A program made the position numbers and the translations under genes. Under the pieces are notes generated by a model that saw only the letters and a program-made list of their open reading frames with translations, made no database searches and was not told the origin of the DNA. Below are positions 2,048 to 48,229 of a stretch of 64,000 nt of DNA, piece after piece. Position 1 is the first letter of the stretch; every line of letters begins with the position of its first letter. The stretch is from Candidatus Babelota bacterium (GTDB lineage Bacteria > Babelota > Babeliae > Babelales > JABDEC01): NCBI GenBank assembly GCA_013286795.1, contig JABDFA010000001.1:38195-102194 (forward strand), in the 5' to 3' direction.

Positions 2048-2719
2048 ATGACAAAAAAACCAATAGAGAATATCTATATTTATAGAACTATATATGAAAA
2101 TGTAATTGCAGTTATATTTTTTTTAGCACTTACTTTTGCGACCTTGAGTATTATTAAAGAAAAGTATGTCTTTTGTAACAAATTAATTATTATAAAACAT
2201 CTATTTTTTTTAACATTAGCTTTTGTTGGATTTGTATATTCATTATACAACTTTTTCTATAAATTTTTAAAAAGAAAAAGCCCAATCTTATTGCTAACTG
2301 CATGTTCTTTAACATATGAACATAACGATATTATAAAGAAAAGTAGGTTTACAGGACAAACGCAGGATGGTCCTGCATTTTTCAACCCATTTATTCAAGA
2401 ATCAATTTTATGGACCGATATAGAAAGTATAACAATTGAAAAATATAAACGAGTACCTGGTAGATATTCTGGAAGTCTTTATTTTTGTATTAATAAGAAA
2501 AAAAATACTGAATCTATTTTAATATCGCTAAAATCAGTTGATTTACCATTGTATTATTTGTGCAAGTTTTTTAAAGAATATAAACCAATAAAAATATATC
2601 CTAATAGCTTTCTTATAAAGATTAAATCATCTCGTTATTATACATATTATTATTCATGGCGTTATTTATTTTGGCTGGCATTAGCAATATGTTATTGTAT
2701 TTATAAACTAAAATATTAA
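2048..2719 (+). CDS. Hypothetical membrane protein
   Basis: Long ORF with several hydrophobic segments (e.g. VIAVIFFLALTFATLSII, LFFLTLAFVGFVYSLY, YLFWLALAICYCIY). No recognisable motif. Confidence 0.5.
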   Translation: MTKKPIENIYIYRTIYENVIAVIFFLALTFATLSIIKEKYVFCNKLIIIKHLFFLTLAFVGFVYSLYNFFYKFLKRKSPILLLTACSLTYEHNDIIKKSRFTGQTQDGPAFFNPFIQESILWTDIESITIEKYKRVPGRYSGSLYFCINKKKNTESILISLKSVDLPLYYLCKFFKEYKPIKIYPNSFLIKIKSSRYYTYYYSWRYLFWLALAICYCIYKLKY

Positions 2720-2735
2720 TTTTAAAAAAATAATT

Positions 2736-3089
2736 TTATATTTTTCTTTCAAATGGACGAGGATCAAAAAATAGTTCTACTTTTGAAATAAGATGATTTT
2801 TAAAATCCATTAAAACTGCTGTTCTAACATTTCCAATAGGCGCTGGACAATCCAAATCATAAATTAAAATTACCTGATCTTTTGAACCAATTACTGTGCG
2901 TATATTAAGTTTTTCAAAAACAGTCATGAAATATTTTATACCATTAACAACAGCTTTTTTTCCACTCATGTTGGTTAATGGTCCCATATACTCTACATTA
3001 GAGTCTAAGTACTTTTCTGCTTCTGCTAAATTTCTATTATTTATTGCTTCATAATAAGCTTTTGCAGAAATTATATTTTTTTCTGTCAT
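2736..3089 (-). CDS. SnoaL/NTF2-like small protein
   Basis: 117 aa. The N-terminus 'AKAYYEAINNRNLAEAEKYLDSNVEY' is typical of SnoaL-like/NTF2 fold proteins. It is transcribed divergently from the TetR gene. Confidence 0.55.
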   Translation of the reverse strand: MTEKNIISAKAYYEAINNRNLAEAEKYLDSNVEYMGPLTNMSGKKAVVNGIKYFMTVFEKLNIRTVIGSKDQVILIYDLDCPAPIGNVRTAVLMDFKNHLISKVELFFDPRPFERKI

Positions 3090-3127
3090 ATAGAGTTCCT
3101 TATGTTTTAATTGTGTTGAGAACTTAA

Positions 3128-3151
3128 TTAAATATAGTAAACTATATTTAA
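3128..3151. promoter_or_regulatory. Perfect 11-nt-arm palindrome, candidate TetR operator
   Basis: TTAAATATAGT-AA-ACTATATTTAA lies in the 91-nt divergent intergenic region between the SnoaL-like and TetR genes. Confidence 0.5.
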
Positions 3152-3180
3152 TATTTCAAGTACATAAAGGAAGACCAAGA

Positions 3181-3801
3181 ATGGTAATATCTAAAAGAGC
3201 CTACAACTTAGAAAAAAGGCAAGCTAAGGCTCAAAAAACAAAGGACCGTATTCTAGTTTCAGCAAAAGAGCTTTTTGAATCTAAAGGATTTGAAAAAGTA
3301 ACTATTGAAGAAATTGCTATCAGAGCAGAAGTATCTGGACCTACAGTTTATTCTATTTTTCAATCAAAAAGTGGAGTTTTAAAGGATTTAATTGATGTAG
3401 CTCTTCCCCAAAAACATTATGAATCAATTATTCAAAAACTGGAAAAGGAAAAATCTGTATCTAAGCGTCTTGAATTAACTGCCAAGCTTTCTCGCCAAAT
3501 TTATGATGCAGAGAAAGAGCAATTAGGGTTGTTACCGGATGTATCAATTTTAAATTCAGAGCTTAAAAATCTAGAATTTGAGCGGGAACAAAGACGTTAC
3601 AAACGACAAGAAGAATCAATCAAAAGATTTAAAGAAAAAAACTTATTAGGAGAACTCAATACATCAAAAGCAAGAGATATTTTATGGGCTTTCACTGGTA
3701 GAGATTTTTACCGAATGTTAGTAATTGAGCGAGGTTGGTCTTCAGATGAATATGAAAAATGGTTGGCTAATATGTTGGTACAGATTTTACTTAAACCATA
3801 A
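3181..3801 (+). CDS. TetR/AcrR-family transcriptional regulator
   Basis: The N-terminal HTH 'ILVSAKELFESKGFEKVTIEEIAIRAEVSGPTVYSIFQSKSGVL' is a classic TetR_N signature. Confidence 0.85.
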   Translation: MVISKRAYNLEKRQAKAQKTKDRILVSAKELFESKGFEKVTIEEIAIRAEVSGPTVYSIFQSKSGVLKDLIDVALPQKHYESIIQKLEKEKSVSKRLELTAKLSRQIYDAEKEQLGLLPDVSILNSELKNLEFEREQRRYKRQEESIKRFKEKNLLGELNTSKARDILWAFTGRDFYRMLVIERGWSSDEYEKWLANMLVQILLKP

Positions 3802-3818
3802 AATCGAATTAAATAAAA

Positions 3819-4505
3819 ATGATAATACAAGAACAATCACAAGAAATCTGTTTTCAAATAGATTATAAAGTTCTGGAAAAAAAAGGGATCGTGATAGTAG
3901 GATTGAGTCCAGAAAACAGTTATTTCAAAAAAGAAACTATTCATGAACTTCTTAGTTTTCTGACAAATTTATTTTCTATGCTAAGAATAATGATTCCCGA
4001 TAAGCCTATACTACATACTTATAAAGCTCTTGGATATTCTATTCAAAAAGCCGAAAGAAAAGCTCGATTAAATGGAAATACCTTAAAAAATCATTGTAAT
4101 AATAGCATCAATGAAATATTAAAAATTCAATCTAATAAAGATATAAAAATTATTAATTGGGAACTTGAAATCGAATCTGAAGAAAATTATTTGCACGAAC
4201 TAAAAGCTTTATTTGCATTATATCAAAGCAAAACTTTATTTTATGAAGATGTGCGATCGACTAAATGGCAAGTTATTAAAAAAAATATGAAGGACCATTC
4301 AGACATAGAAAAATCATTAGATGAAGCTGTTATTTACCTGCTGAAAGAATTAGCATTTATTTTAGCTAGTCCACTTATGTTTAAAGTAGAAAATATAGCA
4401 TTTGTATATCATACAAATTGGCCTCCTTTTGAAAATCTTATTGCTGGGAAATATGATGGCAAAATAAGAAAGAATATAGGATTTCTTATTTGTGTAAAAA
4501 AATAA
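3819..4505 (+). CDS. tRNA-dependent cyclodipeptide synthase (CDPS, NYH-type)
   Basis: 228 aa. 'VIVGLSPENSYFK' matches the catalytic-Ser pocket of AlbC/YvmC (GISxxNSxF). 'ALGYSIQKAERKAR', 'YLLKELAFILASP' (Y..E) and 'FVYHTNWP' (YH) are collinear with the remembered AlbC/YvmC sequences. The gene starts 17 nt after the TetR stop. Confidence 0.8.
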   Translation: MIIQEQSQEICFQIDYKVLEKKGIVIVGLSPENSYFKKETIHELLSFLTNLFSMLRIMIPDKPILHTYKALGYSIQKAERKARLNGNTLKNHCNNSINEILKIQSNKDIKIINWELEIESEENYLHELKALFALYQSKTLFYEDVRSTKWQVIKKNMKDHSDIEKSLDEAVIYLLKELAFILASPLMFKVENIAFVYHTNWPPFENLIAGKYDGKIRKNIGFLICVKK

Positions 4506-4625
4506 AATTTAATCTATATACCTGGAAATTTGGGTAAATTTAATAAAATCGGCAAACGCATTGATTTTCTATTTGTATTTGATATAATATAGATTATTGT
4601 AATATATTATTTTTTAGGAGGTTTT

Positions 4626-5228
4626 ATGAAATTAAGATTATTTTTATCAGTGGCAATAGCTTTATTAATTGTTCCCACAATCAGCTTATCTATGATTAAA
4701 AAGCATAGAAGCCCACAAGAAAAATTATTTAAAGGTACAAGGTATAATGATTTAAATTTGGTACAAGAAGCTCTAGCAGAAGGAGCAGATGTTAATGCAA
4801 AAAATGACATTGGAAAAACTCCTTTAAATATCATAATCGATCATAACGGTTTTCGGAGTTCCAAAAATTCAGATATCGTATTATTAAAAATTATCGAATT
4901 ATTATTAAAGTCAGGCGCACATGTTAATGAAAAAAATAACTATGGCAACACTCCTCTTTATAGTCTGATTCGATTAAATTATGATCCTAATATTATTGAA
5001 ATGTTATTAAATGCAGGTGCTGATATTAATATTGGAAGCTCATATGAAGAAACTATTGGTGAGACTGCTTTAGATGTAGCAAAAGCAAAAAACAATGAAA
5101 AAATAATTAGGCTTCTTACAAAATGGTTAAAAGAATTAAGAAAAAAAGCTAAAGAAGAAACAGCTGCCTATTTAATACCTGATATTAGTGATATAGTTTG
5201 TGATTATGTTGTTGGCTCAAAAAAGTAA
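4626..5228 (+). CDS. Secreted ankyrin-repeat protein with the conserved C-terminal tail motif
   Basis: RBS AGGAGG lies upstream. The leader is MKLRLFLSVAIALLIVPTISLS. ANK repeats include 'TPLNIIIDHNG..', 'TPLYSLIRLNYDPNIIEMLLNAGADIN'. The tail is 'YLIPDISDIVCDYVVGSKK*'. Confidence 0.85.
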   Translation: MKLRLFLSVAIALLIVPTISLSMIKKHRSPQEKLFKGTRYNDLNLVQEALAEGADVNAKNDIGKTPLNIIIDHNGFRSSKNSDIVLLKIIELLLKSGAHVNEKNNYGNTPLYSLIRLNYDPNIIEMLLNAGADINIGSSYEETIGETALDVAKAKNNEKIIRLLTKWLKELRKKAKEETAAYLIPDISDIVCDYVVGSKK

Positions 5229-11168: not shown

Positions 11169-12401
11169 TTAATTTTTATCATATTCATCAAGAGCATCAT
11201 TTAGAATCCGATTTAATTCTGTCGATGGATTAATTTTAACGATACCTGGTTCTGTAGGTGGATTAGAATATGCTTGATTGCTCCAGATTTTTATTTTTCC
11301 ATCATATGATCCTGATGCAAACGTATTTTCTGATAATGCACACAAGCTGGTAAGACCACTTTCATGGGCCTGAAAAGTTTTTATACATTTGCCGCTTTCT
11401 GTATCCCATATTTTTATGGTTTTGTCATAATATCCAGATATAGATACAACTATCTTAGTAGATAATACACATAAATGTTTTGCATCTGTTTCTAATGTTT
11501 TTTCACATTCACCTGTTTCTAAATTCCATATTTTAATCTTGCAATCATCATATCCTGAAACAAGTTTATTTTTTGATAGTATACATAATGTATGGATAGA
11601 ACTATTGTGATCCTTAAGTGTTTTTACGCATTCATTATTATTTAAGTTCCATATTTTTATTGTTCCATCATGTGATGCTGATGCTAATGAATTTTCGGAT
11701 ATGGCACAAAAAGCTGTAATGGAAGATTCATGCTCCGATAAAGTTTGCTCACATTTACCTGTTTTTAGATTAAATATTTTAATTGAATCTTGCTTGTATA
11801 AGTAATTATAAGGCTTATTTTCATGGAAGCTAAAAACAAGTTTATCAGAATTTAATATACATAATATACATTTACCAATATCATTAAATTCAAAAGTTCT
11901 TTCATGTCTACAATATAGCCAATCCTTTTTTACTAAGTCTAAAAAATCTAAATTCCATATATTTATTGTTTTTTTATGAAATGAATGTCCTGATATTAGA
12001 ATATTTTTTGAAGGCGAACATAAGGTATCAATTCGATTTCCCAAAAATTTGGTACTTATACAATTGTAAGTTCCTAAATCCCATATTTTTATGTATCCAT
12101 TATTTGATACTGCTGCTATTTTATTATCATCTAATTTACATAAGGAATCAACGACTTCAAAGCCACCAAGTTCTCTAGCTAATAATTCTTTGCATTCCCA
12201 TTTATCTTCTATTGGATCATATTCTTGAACTAATCTAGCTAAATCATCAATTAAATGCTGGGAAAGACATTCTTGGCGATATCCGGTGATTTTTTGAACT
12301 AATGCAGAAGATAAGTCTTCTTTTTCTTTTGATTCAGACATTGAGTTTATATTAAAAGTCACTACTGAAAGTAATAAAACTATTTTTAGTATATTATTCA
12401 T
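11169..12401 (-). CDS. Secreted WD40-repeat protein with an N-terminal F-box-like motif
   Basis: About seven repeats end in 'IKIWDL/IKIWNL/INIWNL/IKIFNL/IKIWDT'. The leader is MNNILKIVLLLSVVTFNINS. 'HLIDDLARLVQEYDP' lies upstream of the propeller. Confidence 0.85.
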   Translation of the reverse strand: MNNILKIVLLLSVVTFNINSMSESKEKEDLSSALVQKITGYRQECLSQHLIDDLARLVQEYDPIEDKWECKELLARELGGFEVVDSLCKLDDNKIAAVSNNGYIKIWDLGTYNCISTKFLGNRIDTLCSPSKNILISGHSFHKKTINIWNLDFLDLVKKDWLYCRHERTFEFNDIGKCILCILNSDKLVFSFHENKPYNYLYKQDSIKIFNLKTGKCEQTLSEHESSITAFCAISENSLASASHDGTIKIWNLNNNECVKTLKDHNSSIHTLCILSKNKLVSGYDDCKIKIWNLETGECEKTLETDAKHLCVLSTKIVVSISGYYDKTIKIWDTESGKCIKTFQAHESGLTSLCALSENTFASGSYDGKIKIWSNQAYSNPPTEPGIVKINPSTELNRILNDALDEYDKN

Positions 12402-16119: not shown

Positions 16120-16191
16120 TTTTAAAACTATTTTTATTTTATACAAAAATATTTATATTTTTTAATATTAAAAAATAAGGGATATAATTTT

Positions 16192-17502
16192 ATGTCTTAT
16201 AAACCTGAAGTAATTGAAAATATTAAAAAATCTGCAGTTATTTTAGATGAAAAAGCTTATGATATTTTATTAGAAAAAATTGGGGATGCACAAGTAGTAC
16301 TTTTAGGCGAAGCGACCCATGGGACACATGAATTTTATGAAATTCGAGCTGAGATTACAAAAAAATTAATTTTACAAAAAGATTTTAATGCTATAGCAAT
16401 AGAGGGTGATTGGCCAGATGCTTATAATATAAATAATTATATACATCAAAAGAAATACAAAAATGCTCAGGAAGCTTTAGCTTCATTTGATAGATTTCCA
16501 ACATGGATGTGGAGAAATGTTTCTATATTAAAATTAGTTGAGTGGCTAAAAAATCATAATACAAAATCTAATGACCAAGTTGGCTTTTATGGACTTGATT
16601 TATATAGTTTATATAGATCAATAGATGCCGTAATTTTACATCTGGAAAAAATTGATCCAAAACTAGCACAAGAAGCTAGATATAAATATGCATGTCTAGA
16701 GCAATATCGTTATGATCCACAGGTATATGGATATTCAGTTTTTACAAAACTATCTGAATCATGTGAAAATGAGGTAATTGAAGTATTAAAGAAGCTTGAA
16801 GAACTTGAATGGAGATTTATAAAAGAGAAAAGGGAACAAGTAGATGAAGCTTTTTATATAACTCAAAATGGTAGAGTTGTTAAAAATTCTGAAAGCTATT
16901 ATCGTTATCTTTTTGTAAGTGAAATAAAAAATTGGAATCTCAGAGATTCCCATATGATGGAAACATTAGAAGAACTTATTAATTACTATAAAAAAAATGG
17001 TATTTCAAAGCCAAAAATTATAGTTTGGGCCCACAATTCACATATTGGAAATTCTAAGTTTACGCAAATGAGTAGTACAGGTGAATATAATATTGGCGAG
17101 CTTGTAAAAAATAAATTTGGCAACAATTCTTATAGCTTAGGATTTACAACTTATAATGGAACTGTTTCTGCTGCATCAGATTGGCATAGACCAGTAGAAC
17201 GTAAAATAATTAGAAATGCTTTATCAAATAGTTATGAGGAACTTTTTCATCAAGTTGAAATTCCACAATTTTTGTTAACACTTGAGGATAAGAATTTAGT
17301 TCCAAATGAATTGCTTGAAAGAGCCATTGGGGTTGTGTATGCTCCTCAAACTGAAAGATTAAGCCATTACTTTTATGCATCTTTGGCAAATCAATTTGAT
17401 GCAATAATCCATTGTGATAAAACTACTGCATTAGAGCCATTGGAAAAAAGTTCTGCTTGGATAGAAGGCGAGACTCCTGAAACTTACCCTTCAGGATTAT
17501 GA
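16192..17502 (+). CDS. Erythromycin-esterase-family (Ere/ChaN-like) protein
   Basis: 'VVLLGEATHGTHEFYEIRAEITKKLI..FNAIAIEGDWPDA' and 'IVWAHNSHIG' are characteristic of the family. Confidence 0.8.
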   Translation: MSYKPEVIENIKKSAVILDEKAYDILLEKIGDAQVVLLGEATHGTHEFYEIRAEITKKLILQKDFNAIAIEGDWPDAYNINNYIHQKKYKNAQEALASFDRFPTWMWRNVSILKLVEWLKNHNTKSNDQVGFYGLDLYSLYRSIDAVILHLEKIDPKLAQEARYKYACLEQYRYDPQVYGYSVFTKLSESCENEVIEVLKKLEELEWRFIKEKREQVDEAFYITQNGRVVKNSESYYRYLFVSEIKNWNLRDSHMMETLEELINYYKKNGISKPKIIVWAHNSHIGNSKFTQMSSTGEYNIGELVKNKFGNNSYSLGFTTYNGTVSAASDWHRPVERKIIRNALSNSYEELFHQVEIPQFLLTLEDKNLVPNELLERAIGVVYAPQTERLSHYFYASLANQFDAIIHCDKTTALEPLEKSSAWIEGETPETYPSGL

Positions 17503-24461: not shown

Positions 24462-26024
24462 ATGTATAGAAAAAAATTATTTTTAAGTTTTATATTTTTA
24501 TGCACCTTTAATATCTATTGTTTAAAAATAAACAGAGTAATTTTGTCTACAGATAATAATCCGGTATATATGGAGTTTTGGCCAATAGTATCTAAATTGT
24601 GGAAAGATGTTATTGGAGTACAGCCTACATTAGCCTTTATTGCGGATAAATCAGTAAAAATAGATGAATCATTAGGTGATGTTATAAGATTTGAACCAAT
24701 TCCAGGTATTTCAACTGCAACATATGCCCAATGTATTAGATTATTGCTACCTGCTTATTTTGAAGATGAAGTTTGTATAACTTCAGATATTGATATGTTA
24801 CCAGTTAATAAAGATTATTTTGTTAATTCTATTAAAGGAATACCTGACGATTGTTTTGTAAATTATAAGAATGGTTATTATGAAAGAGATGGTTCTTTTT
24901 TGCAATATCCAATATGTTATAATGTTGCTAAGGGTAAAATTTTTAAAGAAATTTTTAAAATTGCTAGCATACAAGATATACCTTTAATTATCAAACAATG
25001 GGTAAGTAAAGGTTATGGTTGGAATACTGACGAAAGAATACTTTATAAGAGTTTGCATGAATGGTGTTATTTTAAATCAAGATTTATAAGATTGGGACAT
25101 CTGGATAAAGATAGAATAGATAGGTTTAGATATAGGGATCCTAAAGACGGAGAATGGTTTTTTCAATATGATGACAAATTATTACAGAATAATTTTTACG
25201 TAGATGCCCATTGCCCAAGACCTTACCATAAATACAAAAATGAAATTGATAATTTGGTTAATAAGTTAATTTTTAAATCTGAACTAGAAAAGCGAAATGA
25301 ATTTGTGATTATTGTACCTTCTTATAACAACGAAAAATGGTGCATAAAAAATTTAGAGTCCATTTTTAATCAGGGTTATTTAAATTATCAAGTAATATAT
25401 ATAAATGATTGTTCTACTGATAATACAGGCAAACTTGTACAAGAATATTTGAAATCAAAAAATTTAGAAAATAAATGTTGGTATATAGAAAATTTCGAAC
25501 GTAAAGGAGCTCTTGCAAATATATATCAATATGTTCATGCGTGTAAGAATAATCAGATAATTGTCCTACTTGATGGTGATGATTGGTTTGTTCATGAAAG
25601 CGTTCTGTCGATCCTAGATAAAGCTTATAAAAGTTCTGATATTTGGTTAACATATGGTCAATATATTGATACTAATTGTGTATTGGGCTGCGGAACTCTT
25701 TATCCAGAAAATATTATTAAAGAAAGATCTTACAGAGAAAATGAATGGCGAGCATCCCATTTGAGAACCTTCAGGGCTTTTTTATTTAAACATATTTGTA
25801 AAGAAGATTTATTATATGAAGGTAAGTTTTTCGATATGGCATGGGATTTGGCTTTTATGTTTCCTATGCTTGAAATGGCCGGCAAAAGATTTTGTTGTAT
25901 AGATCAAATTTTATATGTTTATAATTTAGATAATCCGATTAGTGATGCTAAGAAAGATAAAGATAGACAAGGTTTTTTAGATCGATACATTAGAAAAATG
26001 GCTAAATATGATATGTTAGATTAG
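24462..26024 (+). CDS. Two-module glycosyltransferase (GT-A-like plus GT2), paralog of 20958-22499
   Basis: 'ITSDIDMLPV', then 'FVIIVPSYNNEKWCIKNLESIFNQGYLNYQVIYINDCSTDNTG' and 'LDGDDW'. The leader is MYRKKLFLSFIFLCTFNIYC. Confidence 0.7.
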   Translation: MYRKKLFLSFIFLCTFNIYCLKINRVILSTDNNPVYMEFWPIVSKLWKDVIGVQPTLAFIADKSVKIDESLGDVIRFEPIPGISTATYAQCIRLLLPAYFEDEVCITSDIDMLPVNKDYFVNSIKGIPDDCFVNYKNGYYERDGSFLQYPICYNVAKGKIFKEIFKIASIQDIPLIIKQWVSKGYGWNTDERILYKSLHEWCYFKSRFIRLGHLDKDRIDRFRYRDPKDGEWFFQYDDKLLQNNFYVDAHCPRPYHKYKNEIDNLVNKLIFKSELEKRNEFVIIVPSYNNEKWCIKNLESIFNQGYLNYQVIYINDCSTDNTGKLVQEYLKSKNLENKCWYIENFERKGALANIYQYVHACKNNQIIVLLDGDDWFVHESVLSILDKAYKSSDIWLTYGQYIDTNCVLGCGTLYPENIIKERSYRENEWRASHLRTFRAFLFKHICKEDLLYEGKFFDMAWDLAFMFPMLEMAGKRFCCIDQILYVYNLDNPISDAKKDKDRQGFLDRYIRKMAKYDMLD

Positions 26025-47467: not shown

Positions 47468-47551
47468 TTTTACCTCTAAAAACTTTTTTATATTTATTTG
47501 ATATAATAGTATATGTGGCTATAATTTCCAGGTTTAAAGTTGGGGTTTTTT

Positions 47552-48229
47552 ATGAGAATTAAATTATTTTTATTAATCTATCTAGGATCTATAGGCTCAA
47601 TCTATGGTATGAGCAAAATTGCTAATGAAATGCTTTTGGAGGGGATTGTTATGGGGAATATAGAACTTGTAAAAGAGGCTATAGAAAATGGAGCAGATGT
47701 AAATACCAAAAAAGGCCAAGATACGGCTTTAATGATGGCTGCTCGTAATGATAATGAAGACGTAGCAAGGTTATTATTAGATGCTAAAGCTGACTGTAAT
47801 ATGACCGATGATTACAGTTCAACTCCCTTAATGATTGCAGTGCGTCGTGGCAAAGAAAATTTAGTGAAGCTATTTTTACGTTATGGTGCTGATCCTGATA
47901 TTAAAAGCAGGTATGGCGATGTGGCTTTGTTATTAGCTGCATATGGCTATGGAATTATCGTGAAAATGGAGGATATACTAAAATTATTATTAGATGCAGG
48001 TGCTTCTCTGGATATAATGGACAAGCAAGGTCTAAATGTTTTAGATACAGCAAATAAAAAAAAAGACAAATCTCTTATAGAATTATTAGAAGCTGAATAC
48101 AAAAAAAGAGAAGAAAAAAGACAACAGGTGAATAAAGAGATTGTTGAATCAGGTTATCTATTGCCGGATTTAGCAAGCATAGTTTCAGAATATGCTGTTT
48201 GCGCAAAACAAAAGGGAGGAGGCAAATAA
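47552..48229 (+). CDS. Secreted ankyrin-repeat protein with the conserved tail
   Basis: ATG 47552 gives the leader MRIKLFLLIYLGSIGSIYG. There are 4-5 ANK repeats. The tail is 'YLLPDLASIVSEYAVCAKQKGGGK*'. It is a close paralog of 63278-63919 and of the N-terminus of 54909-56264. Confidence 0.85.
   Translation: MRIKLFLLIYLGSIGSIYGMSKIANEMLLEGIVMGNIELVKEAIENGADVNTKKGQDTALMMAARNDNEDVARLLLDAKADCNMTDDYSSTPLMIAVRRGKENLVKLFLRYGADPDIKSRYGDVALLLAAYGYGIIVKMEDILKLLLDAGASLDIMDKQGLNVLDTANKKKDKSLIELLEAEYKKREEKRQQVNKEIVESGYLLPDLASIVSEYAVCAKQKGGGK

Follow-up and report, generated by a model that had tools for sequence, protein, structure and literature searches.

A gene for a cyclodipeptide synthase (CDPS) of 228 residues is located at positions 3819-4505, on the forward strand, of a 64,000-nucleotide stretch of a Candidatus Babelota bacterium (contig JABDFA010000001.1; this whole stretch is hereafter the window). 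It lies directly 3' of the gene of a TetR/AcrR-family regulator of 206 residues (3181-3801, forward strand), which is in turn divergent from a gene for a SnoaL_2/NTF2-like protein of 117 residues (2736-3089, reverse strand). Family profile matches and a predicted structure give solid grounds for assigning 3819-4505 to an intact, full-length CDPS of the NYH subfamily. We consider it likely that this functional-looking CDPS gene is a lineage-specific addition, placed 17 nucleotides (nt) 3' of a pre-existing TetR/SnoaL unit and probably co-transcribed with tetR. The first-pass annotation of this DNA had proposed a minimal regulated diketopiperazine cassette. Two parts of that proposal stand, namely that an NYH CDPS lies directly 3' of the TetR gene and that a palindrome, which proves to be a conserved operator, lies before the latter, but the SnoaL/TetR/operator unit is conserved without a CDPS. 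The cassette reading needs correcting because the CDPS was added to a module that already existed.

Identity, fold and substrate pockets of the cyclodipeptide synthase

That the gene encodes a CDPS, as the first-pass annotation had claimed, is borne out by full-domain matches to PF16715 (E 1.5e-30; 107 bits against a cut-off of 27; residues 18-224 of 228) and to TIGR04539 (E 5.8e-37; 127.4 bits against a cut-off of 45; residues 18-224). By sequence, its closest solved relatives are YvmC, the cyclo-Leu-Leu synthase of S. haemolyticus and BtCDPS. The motifs GLSPENSYF, KAERKAR, YLLKELAF and FVYHTNWP, on which the original assignment was built, are all found in the translation of 3819-4505.

To place the catalytic residues, a profile of 22 CDPS family members was aligned with hhalign to AlbC, whose reference sequence was checked and is identical to PDB 3oqv; the alignment has a probability of 98.9%. 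In this alignment the catalytic residues S30, Y173, E177 and Y197 of the window CDPS correspond to S37, Y178, E182 and Y202 of AlbC. The NYH subfamily is defined by N40, Y202 and H203 in AlbC numbering, as opposed to X40, Y202 and P203 in the XYP subfamily (PMC7613923). N33, Y197 and H198 of the window CDPS align to these three NYH positions, in agreement with the subfamily proposed earlier. A misalignment of the catalytic residues, which would have spoken against a CDPS, was not seen, because the full catalytic set and the NYH residues align with those of AlbC. S30, N33, Y173, E177, Y197 and H198 are invariant in 21 of the 22 aligned relatives, the exception being a second CDPS, P0002, with Phe at the position of Y173, and N33, Y197 and H198 are invariant in the clade.

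The AlphaFold2 model of the protein, built on the family alignment, has a mean predicted local distance difference test score (pLDDT) of 92.9 and a predicted template modelling score of 0.89. In a Foldseek search of the PDB, the best 49 matches of this model are all CDPSs, with template modelling (TM) scores up to 0.83, followed by an aminoacyl-tRNA synthetase, and structures of the NYH subfamily (TM 0.78-0.83) rank above those of the XYP subfamily. The predicted fold is of the Rossmann type and related to the catalytic domains of class-I aminoacyl-tRNA synthetases. It is the same as that of YvmC (B. licheniformis, cyclo-Leu-Leu), Shae-CDPS (S. haemolyticus), AlbC (S. noursei), BtCDPS and Rv2275, and the window CDPS shares with the solved NYH enzymes the catalytic Ser/Tyr/Glu/Tyr set, the N40/Y202/H203 signature and a stand-alone domain of ∼230 residues. 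It differs from them in being only 17-24% identical in sequence, in belonging to a clade on a long branch, in having no partner P450 (CypX, CYP121) or cyclodipeptide oxidase (AlbA/B) nearby, and in residing in a host that is neither an actinobacterium nor a firmicute.

By analogy with AlbC and YvmC, the enzyme would be expected to be active as follows. S30 would accept the aminoacyl group from a first aminoacyl-tRNA, a second aminoacyl-tRNA would then yield a dipeptidyl-enzyme, and Y173, E177 and Y197 would aid cyclisation to a 2,5-diketopiperazine.

For the substrate pockets we used the positions commonly given for AlbC, namely 33, 35, 65, 67, 119, 185, 186 and 200 for P1 and 152, 155, 156, 159, 204, 206 and 207 for P2. 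Mapped onto these assumed positions by hhalign, P1 of the window CDPS consists of I26, G28, M58, P60, I112, F180, I181 and F195, and P2 of T148, Q151, V152, K155, T199, W201 and P202. P1 is all hydrophobic, which suggests a hydrophobic first substrate. The fifth P1 position (I112) adjoins a three-residue gap in the alignment, and the clade-invariant W114 is an alternative for it. The text of PMC5816076 supports positions 65 and 119 only, and it names 119 as the fourth P1 residue, unlike the ordering used here. Of the profile and pocket checks that the first-pass annotation had proposed, the profile alignment to AlbC holds, but the pocket motifs match none of the characterised specificity groups tabulated in PMC5816076. 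We regard the product as unpredictable from the pockets. A cyclo(Tyr-Tyr) product, as in the JGI label "cyclo(Tyr-Tyr) synthase" carried by relatives, was considered and rejected, since that label is annotation and not evidence; moreover, the motifs of NYH cyclo(Tyr-Tyr) synthases, VGxTMLFN and LxFxQLP, are unlike the IGMPIFIF and TQVKTWP of the window CDPS.

The TetR/SnoaL-like unit and its operator

The regulator upstream of the CDPS matches TetR_N (E 7.3e-12; 45.3 bits against a cut-off of 24) over residues 24-68 of 206, and solved TetR structures match it through the helix-turn-helix region only. It belongs to a large and highly conserved family of orthologues: a set of 5.8 billion proteins includes 908 homologues, and full-length identity is 55-84% for the best 120 of these. 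Names are attached to two homologues, one from a Candidatus Babeliales bacterium and one from Simkania negevensis; the contig of the latter also bears a chlamydia-specific CT_504-like gene. In an alignment of 24 members, the mean column identity is 65% over the full length, with the ligand domain included.

The product of the divergent gene matches SnoaL_2 (E 5.2e-7; 30.6 bits against a cut-off of 27) and, at ∼117 residues, resembles the SnoaL/NTF2-like superfamily in size. The solved structure nearest to it is 3f40, which is described as an "uncharacterized NTF2-like protein" (E 2.2e-5). It falls below the threshold of PF07366, the family of the SnoaL polyketide cyclases proper (21 bits against 28.4). 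A word-indexed homology search with the SnoaL-like protein returned itself only, and its orthologues were recovered instead by their position beside TetR orthologues.

The set of TetR orthologues comprises 84 loci (L083-L166), 80 of them from a metagenome scan, and 78 of the 84 contain the full TetR open reading frame (ORF). Where at least 450 nt upstream of TetR are available, a divergent SnoaL-like orthologue (E 1e-16 to 1e-46) is present beside it in 53 of 68 loci, or in 56 loci when counted by clustering. Three contigs were inspected individually (TetR 84%, 75% and 59% identical), and each has the divergent SnoaL_2 gene; downstream of TetR, one has no gene, one a gene of the CMD family and one a PAF-AH gene in convergent orientation. 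Across the orthologue loci the genes 3' of TetR are mostly singletons, for example CMD, SDR and FAD monooxygenase genes, so that this position is a variable slot, and a CDPS is found in none of the 84. The GC content of the loci ranges from 27 to 60%. No polyketide or diketopiperazine genes were seen near the SnoaL-like orthologues in these neighbourhoods, and a literature search on the pairing of TetR with SnoaL found nothing relevant. SnoaL, TetR and operator are a separate, older and widespread unit that is conserved without a CDPS, and this module is itself uncharacterised though very widespread.

The operator is located between the two divergent genes. The first-pass annotation had described here a perfect palindrome with 11-nt arms (3128-3151), which is correct and in fact extends by one more pair to a 26-base-pair (bp) element at 3127-3152 with perfect 12-nt arms and a 2-nt spacer, ATTAAATATAGT-AA-ACTATATTTAAT. 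Under a first-order Markov model of AT-rich sequence, the chance of an arm of at least 12 nt is ∼0.0015 per 91-nt spacer; in the whole window, palindromes with arms of at least 11 nt number six against 0.75 expected. A second copy of the 26-bp element was sought in the window and in the P0002 locus, and none was found. Upstream of TetR in the orthologue loci, a site with at most seven mismatches to the 26-mer is present in 68 of 74, and the best background match has eight mismatches. From 55 distinct sites we derive the consensus ATTGAATATAGT-AA-ACTATATCCAAT, with the near-invariant core TATAGTAAACTATA, and in the closest locus (L083) the operator carries a symmetric compensatory change, ATTGAATATAGT-AA-ACTATATTCAAT. 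These sequence comparisons mark the palindrome as a real operator that evolution has conserved, and we predict that the adjacent TetR binds it. As a by-product, they also define clearly the 26-bp operator consensus of a TetR family with more than 900 members.

Promoter-like sites are present on both sides. For tetR, and possibly the CDPS gene behind it, a consensus scan finds TTGAGA, 16 nt, TAAACT at 3116-3143 on the forward strand (9/12), and for the SnoaL-like gene it finds TTGAAA, 17 nt, TATATT at 3131-3159 on the reverse strand (10/12); in each case the -10 lies within the operator. In both L083 and L086, the -35-like element of the tetR side (TTGAGA or TTGCAT) is retained in position, and that of the SnoaL side (TTGAAA or TTGACA) is likewise kept. 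As in TetR/tetA, EthR/ethA and QacR/qacA, an N-terminal helix-turn-helix is combined with a palindromic operator in the divergent intergenic region. Since the operator lies over both divergent promoter-like sites, autoregulation and control of the divergent gene are expected, as in classical TetR repressors, and the layout is that of a TetR that would repress itself and its divergent neighbour. The window TetR differs from the classical repressors in that no solved or named protein is close to its ligand domain and its target is a small NTF2-like protein.

Probable addition of the synthase gene to the TetR unit

Scanning a single genome for each GTDB species recovered 80 loci (L001-L080) with relatives 33-47% identical to the window CDPS. 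By their labels, 42 belong to the candidate phyla radiation (CPR)/Patescibacteria, 19 to DPANN-type archaea, six to Obscuribacterales/Melainabacteria, four to Bdellovibrionota and nine to other or unclassified groups. An exhaustive HMMER search for CDPSs gave 501 clusters at 50% identity with E ≤1e-3, and 44 with E ≤1e-30. At the 80 loci, no TetR or SnoaL neighbour was found. Unbiased clustering of genes within 4 kb of the clade CDPSs yields no conserved neighbour family, the largest occurring in seven loci. This largest family is a tandem AsnC/Lrp regulator of ∼345 residues. Its seven loci are all of DPANN (L002:3057-4082, L003:6883-7920, L004:6865-7890, L005:228-1250, L007:6845-7879, L009:4538-5578 and L010:3184-4248); in them it is divergent from the CDPS and lies 72-111 nt upstream of it, apparently as a different, dedicated regulator pairing. 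SAM methyltransferases occur near the clade CDPSs in seven loci at variable distance, and among the 81 loci of the clade there is no P450 or cyclodipeptide oxidase nearby. Around the window CDPS itself, no tailoring enzyme was found within ∼5 kb; its neighbours there are ankyrin proteins, proteins of no assigned function and, 1.75 kb off on the opposite strand, an SDR. The conserved adjacent tailoring enzyme that marks a CDPS-dependent gene cluster, be it a cyclodipeptide oxidase, P450, methyltransferase, 2-OG oxygenase or prenyltransferase, is absent here.

The nearest relative of the window CDPS is P0002 (L082:2861-3544), which is 58% identical. It lies on DNA of 28% GC between ankyrin genes and shares the sequencing run SRR8433578 with dnaK of the window, and it is probably a paralogue within the same genome. 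P0002 has its own Shine-Dalgarno sequence, with no regulator, no SnoaL or TetR neighbour and no operator, and its pockets (P1 LGFPLFLY, P2 TQVSKWP) differ from those of the window CDPS. The two pair up in 176 of 200 bootstraps of a neighbour-joining tree, which places them within the archaeon-rich half of the clade; their sister group is wholly archaeal in just 86 of the 200. The window CDPS, like each of the 18 window or related proteins looked up, is a singleton at 90% identity. Domain fusions are also seen among the relatives: the CDPS at L042:8409-9371 runs at its C-terminus into an SBP_bac_3 solute-binding domain, and the CDPS is N-terminal in several representatives of 444-500 residues (P0189, P0201, P0214, P0231, P0234, P0259 and P0281).

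As no CDPS is found at the 84 TetR loci and no TetR or SnoaL-like gene at the 80 CDPS loci, the CDPS gene is best regarded as a lineage-specific addition, which would have entered the variable slot 3' of a conserved TetR in this lineage only. A search around it for direct and inverted repeats that could be insertion scars gave nothing meaningful, and the GC content of the three genes equals that of their flanks (26-31%), with no compositional anomaly.

The gap of 17 nt that had been reported after the TetR gene is exact: the spacer between the tetR stop and the CDPS ATG is aatcgaattaaataaaa (3802-3818, forward strand), with no terminator and no Shine-Dalgarno-like run. No terminator-like sites were found in 2600-4700, and there is no significantly stable hairpin or RNA structure around the CDPS gene (z 0.88). 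The CDPS start lacks a Shine-Dalgarno sequence of its own (aatcgaattaaataaaaATG), and such sequences are seen elsewhere, namely aaggaag for tetR, aaggaac for the SnoaL-like gene, aggagg for the downstream ankyrin gene and agggg for the paralogue. Because the gap on the same strand is only 17 nt, no terminator or hairpin intervenes and the CDPS has no Shine-Dalgarno sequence of its own, we infer that transcription from the operator-controlled promoter most likely covers both tetR and the CDPS. That the adjacent TetR regulates the CDPS is plausible, and this would come about solely via operon read-through. The CDPS would then be derepressed by the ligand that TetR senses, and this ligand would be tied to the role of the SnoaL-like protein rather than to diketopiperazine chemistry.

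Several observations weigh against the reading of a functional, co-transcribed addition. In the model, helix alpha4 (residues 75-103) bears K77, R80, K81, R83 and K89, but the residues aligned to the tRNA-binding R98, R99, R101 and R102 on alpha4 of AlbC are non-basic, the basic residues lying earlier on the helix. To our knowledge, no member of the clade of the window CDPS has been biochemically characterised. The scan behind the 80 loci was seeded with patterns of clade-specific peptides and is thereby biased to close relatives rather than covering all CDPSs. The missing Shine-Dalgarno sequence could instead mean poor expression of the CDPS. Lastly, a weak promoter-like match (TTGGTA, 18 nt, TAAAAT; 9/12) is located at 3775-3804, directly before the CDPS ATG.

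This last match raises the alternative that the adjacency is incidental and that the CDPS uses its own promoter within the 3' end of tetR, outside operator control. That the paralogue works without any linked regulator, and that unrelated genes occupy the slot 3' of this TetR in other genomes, would fit such an arrangement. However, a match of 9/12 is weak in a scan where promoter-like matches are near chance (17 found against 12.3 expected), a promoter at this place would leave a leader of ∼7 nt without a Shine-Dalgarno sequence, and no terminator separates tetR from the CDPS; we therefore consider an independent promoter unlikely. It is very improbable, in turn, that the CDPS was horizontally acquired and is now non-functional or barely expressed. 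The lack of a Shine-Dalgarno sequence, the singleton status of the protein at 90% identity and the patchy occurrence of its relatives across domains could be taken in this sense, but the ORF is of full length with all catalytic and NYH residues intact, the structure model is confident, the composition is fully ameliorated to that of the host, and a second intact paralogue has been retained.

The remaining alternative is that the three genes form one dedicated diketopiperazine cassette, in which the SnoaL-like protein tailors the product and TetR is a pathway-specific, possibly product-sensing regulator. The three genes are indeed adjacent and have one common control region, and polyketide-cyclase-like ORFs recur beside some CDPSs of other bacteria (PMC5767969). 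Against it, the SnoaL/TetR/operator unit is kept in at least 53 loci without a CDPS, none of the 80 related CDPS loci has a SnoaL or TetR neighbour, P0002 has neither, and the SnoaL-like protein is under the cut-off of the SnoaL cyclase family proper. For these reasons of conservation and absence, tailoring by the SnoaL-like protein, as suggested by the first-pass annotation, is unlikely, and its view of TetR as a regulator specific to the pathway does not hold up either. The TetR protein is also highly conserved over its full length, ligand domain included (55-84% identity), in CDPS-free genomes, and so the signal that it senses is unlikely to be a diketopiperazine. Taken as a whole, a dedicated cassette appears quite improbable, and the SnoaL-like neighbour should not be counted as a tailoring enzyme. 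The reading that we prefer over these alternatives is that of a CDPS gene added behind an older TetR/SnoaL unit.

Comparison with other host-dependent microbes and context in the window

CDPSs have been known from intracellular bacteria since 2010, when a still hypothetical host-interaction role, of the kind also suggested by the first-pass annotation, was proposed for their products (PMC2922099); the locus described here adds an NYH enzyme of an uncharacterised clade. Like the CDPSs of Legionella/Fluoribacter dumoffii, Rickettsiella grylli and Parachlamydia/Protochlamydia, the window CDPS occurs in a probably host-dependent bacterium that is otherwise without secondary metabolism, the situation that prompted the 2010 proposal. 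Fdum-CDPS and Rgry-CDPS are structures of the XYP subfamily (PMC7613923) and are found at Foldseek rank 21 or lower, whereas the window CDPS is of the NYH subfamily and its relatives are from DPANN and CPR. ParcuCDPS, a characterised enzyme of Parcubacteria bacterium RAAC4_OD1_1 (cyclo-His-Pro/His-Glu), comes from a CPR host, as do the dominant members of our clade (PMC5816076, PMC7613923); it is an XYP enzyme, and its structure matches the window CDPS far less well (TM ∼0.63, E ∼1e-5).

A literature search for links of CDPSs to DPANN or to Babeliales/Dependentiae found nothing, and CPR is already represented by ParcuCDPS. A survey of 2018 reported that 72% of NYH enzymes came from actinobacteria, 19% from firmicutes and 8.5% from proteobacteria, and the one archaeal sequence then known was of the XYP subfamily (PMC5816076). 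Compared with that survey, an NYH clade labelled DPANN in 19 and CPR in 42 of 80 representative loci is mildly new. Our findings on the window CDPS do not overturn current understanding. The gain is two paralogous CDPS genes, both intact, as sources of possible new cyclodipeptides.

The clade is concentrated in DPANN and CPR organisms of minimal metabolism, for which it is reasonable to make a bioactive small molecule from aminoacyl-tRNAs with a single enzyme. A speculative extension, which we think rather unlikely, is that the NYH-type clade is an inter-domain "symbiont toolkit" gene exchanged among DPANN, CPR, predatory bacteria and protist-infecting Babeliales-like bacteria, that the diketopiperazine it yields would target the host or partner cell, and that one paralogue has been wired to a conserved TetR so as to be made only on an intracellular cue. 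If this were true, the locus would offer a tractable entry to the role of CDPSs in host-dependent microbes, with a defined operator, a defined repressor and two comparable paralogues.

The composition of the window is in keeping with the endosymbiont-like label given to it earlier, which we find plausible. It has 28.8% GC and is 91% coding, and ankyrin repeats occur in 11 of its 66 ORFs (17%), for example at 1168-1827, 4626-5228, 47540-48229 and 54909-56264. Genes for eukaryote-like proteins, a GT10 fucosyltransferase and a WD40 beta-propeller, are present (115-957 and 11169-12401), and one of the ankyrin proteins has sub-threshold matches to models of Legionella Dot/Icm Ank effectors. No rRNA or tRNA gene was found in the window. 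The low GC content and the eukaryote-like genes fit an intracellular bacterium that lives with protists, for instance one of the Babeliales, a placement to which one named TetR homologue also points.

Two other palindromic elements were observed in the window. A perfect 22-nt palindrome, TATTTTTTAATATTAAAAAATA, at 16156-16177 is located directly upstream of an erythromycin-esterase-family gene (16192-17502; PF05139, E 2.9e-118). A perfect inverted repeat with 13-nt arms, TTGCAATTAATTT-TACTG-AAATTAATTGCAA, at 58931-58961 lies upstream of dnaK (56459-58333, reverse strand), near a CarD-like gene seen in L081, and does not look like a CIRCE element. In addition, the ORFs at 19060-39606 form a long run on the same strand, among them one with a TuaG-like glycosyltransferase domain (24462-26024), and could be a cluster for surface polysaccharide.

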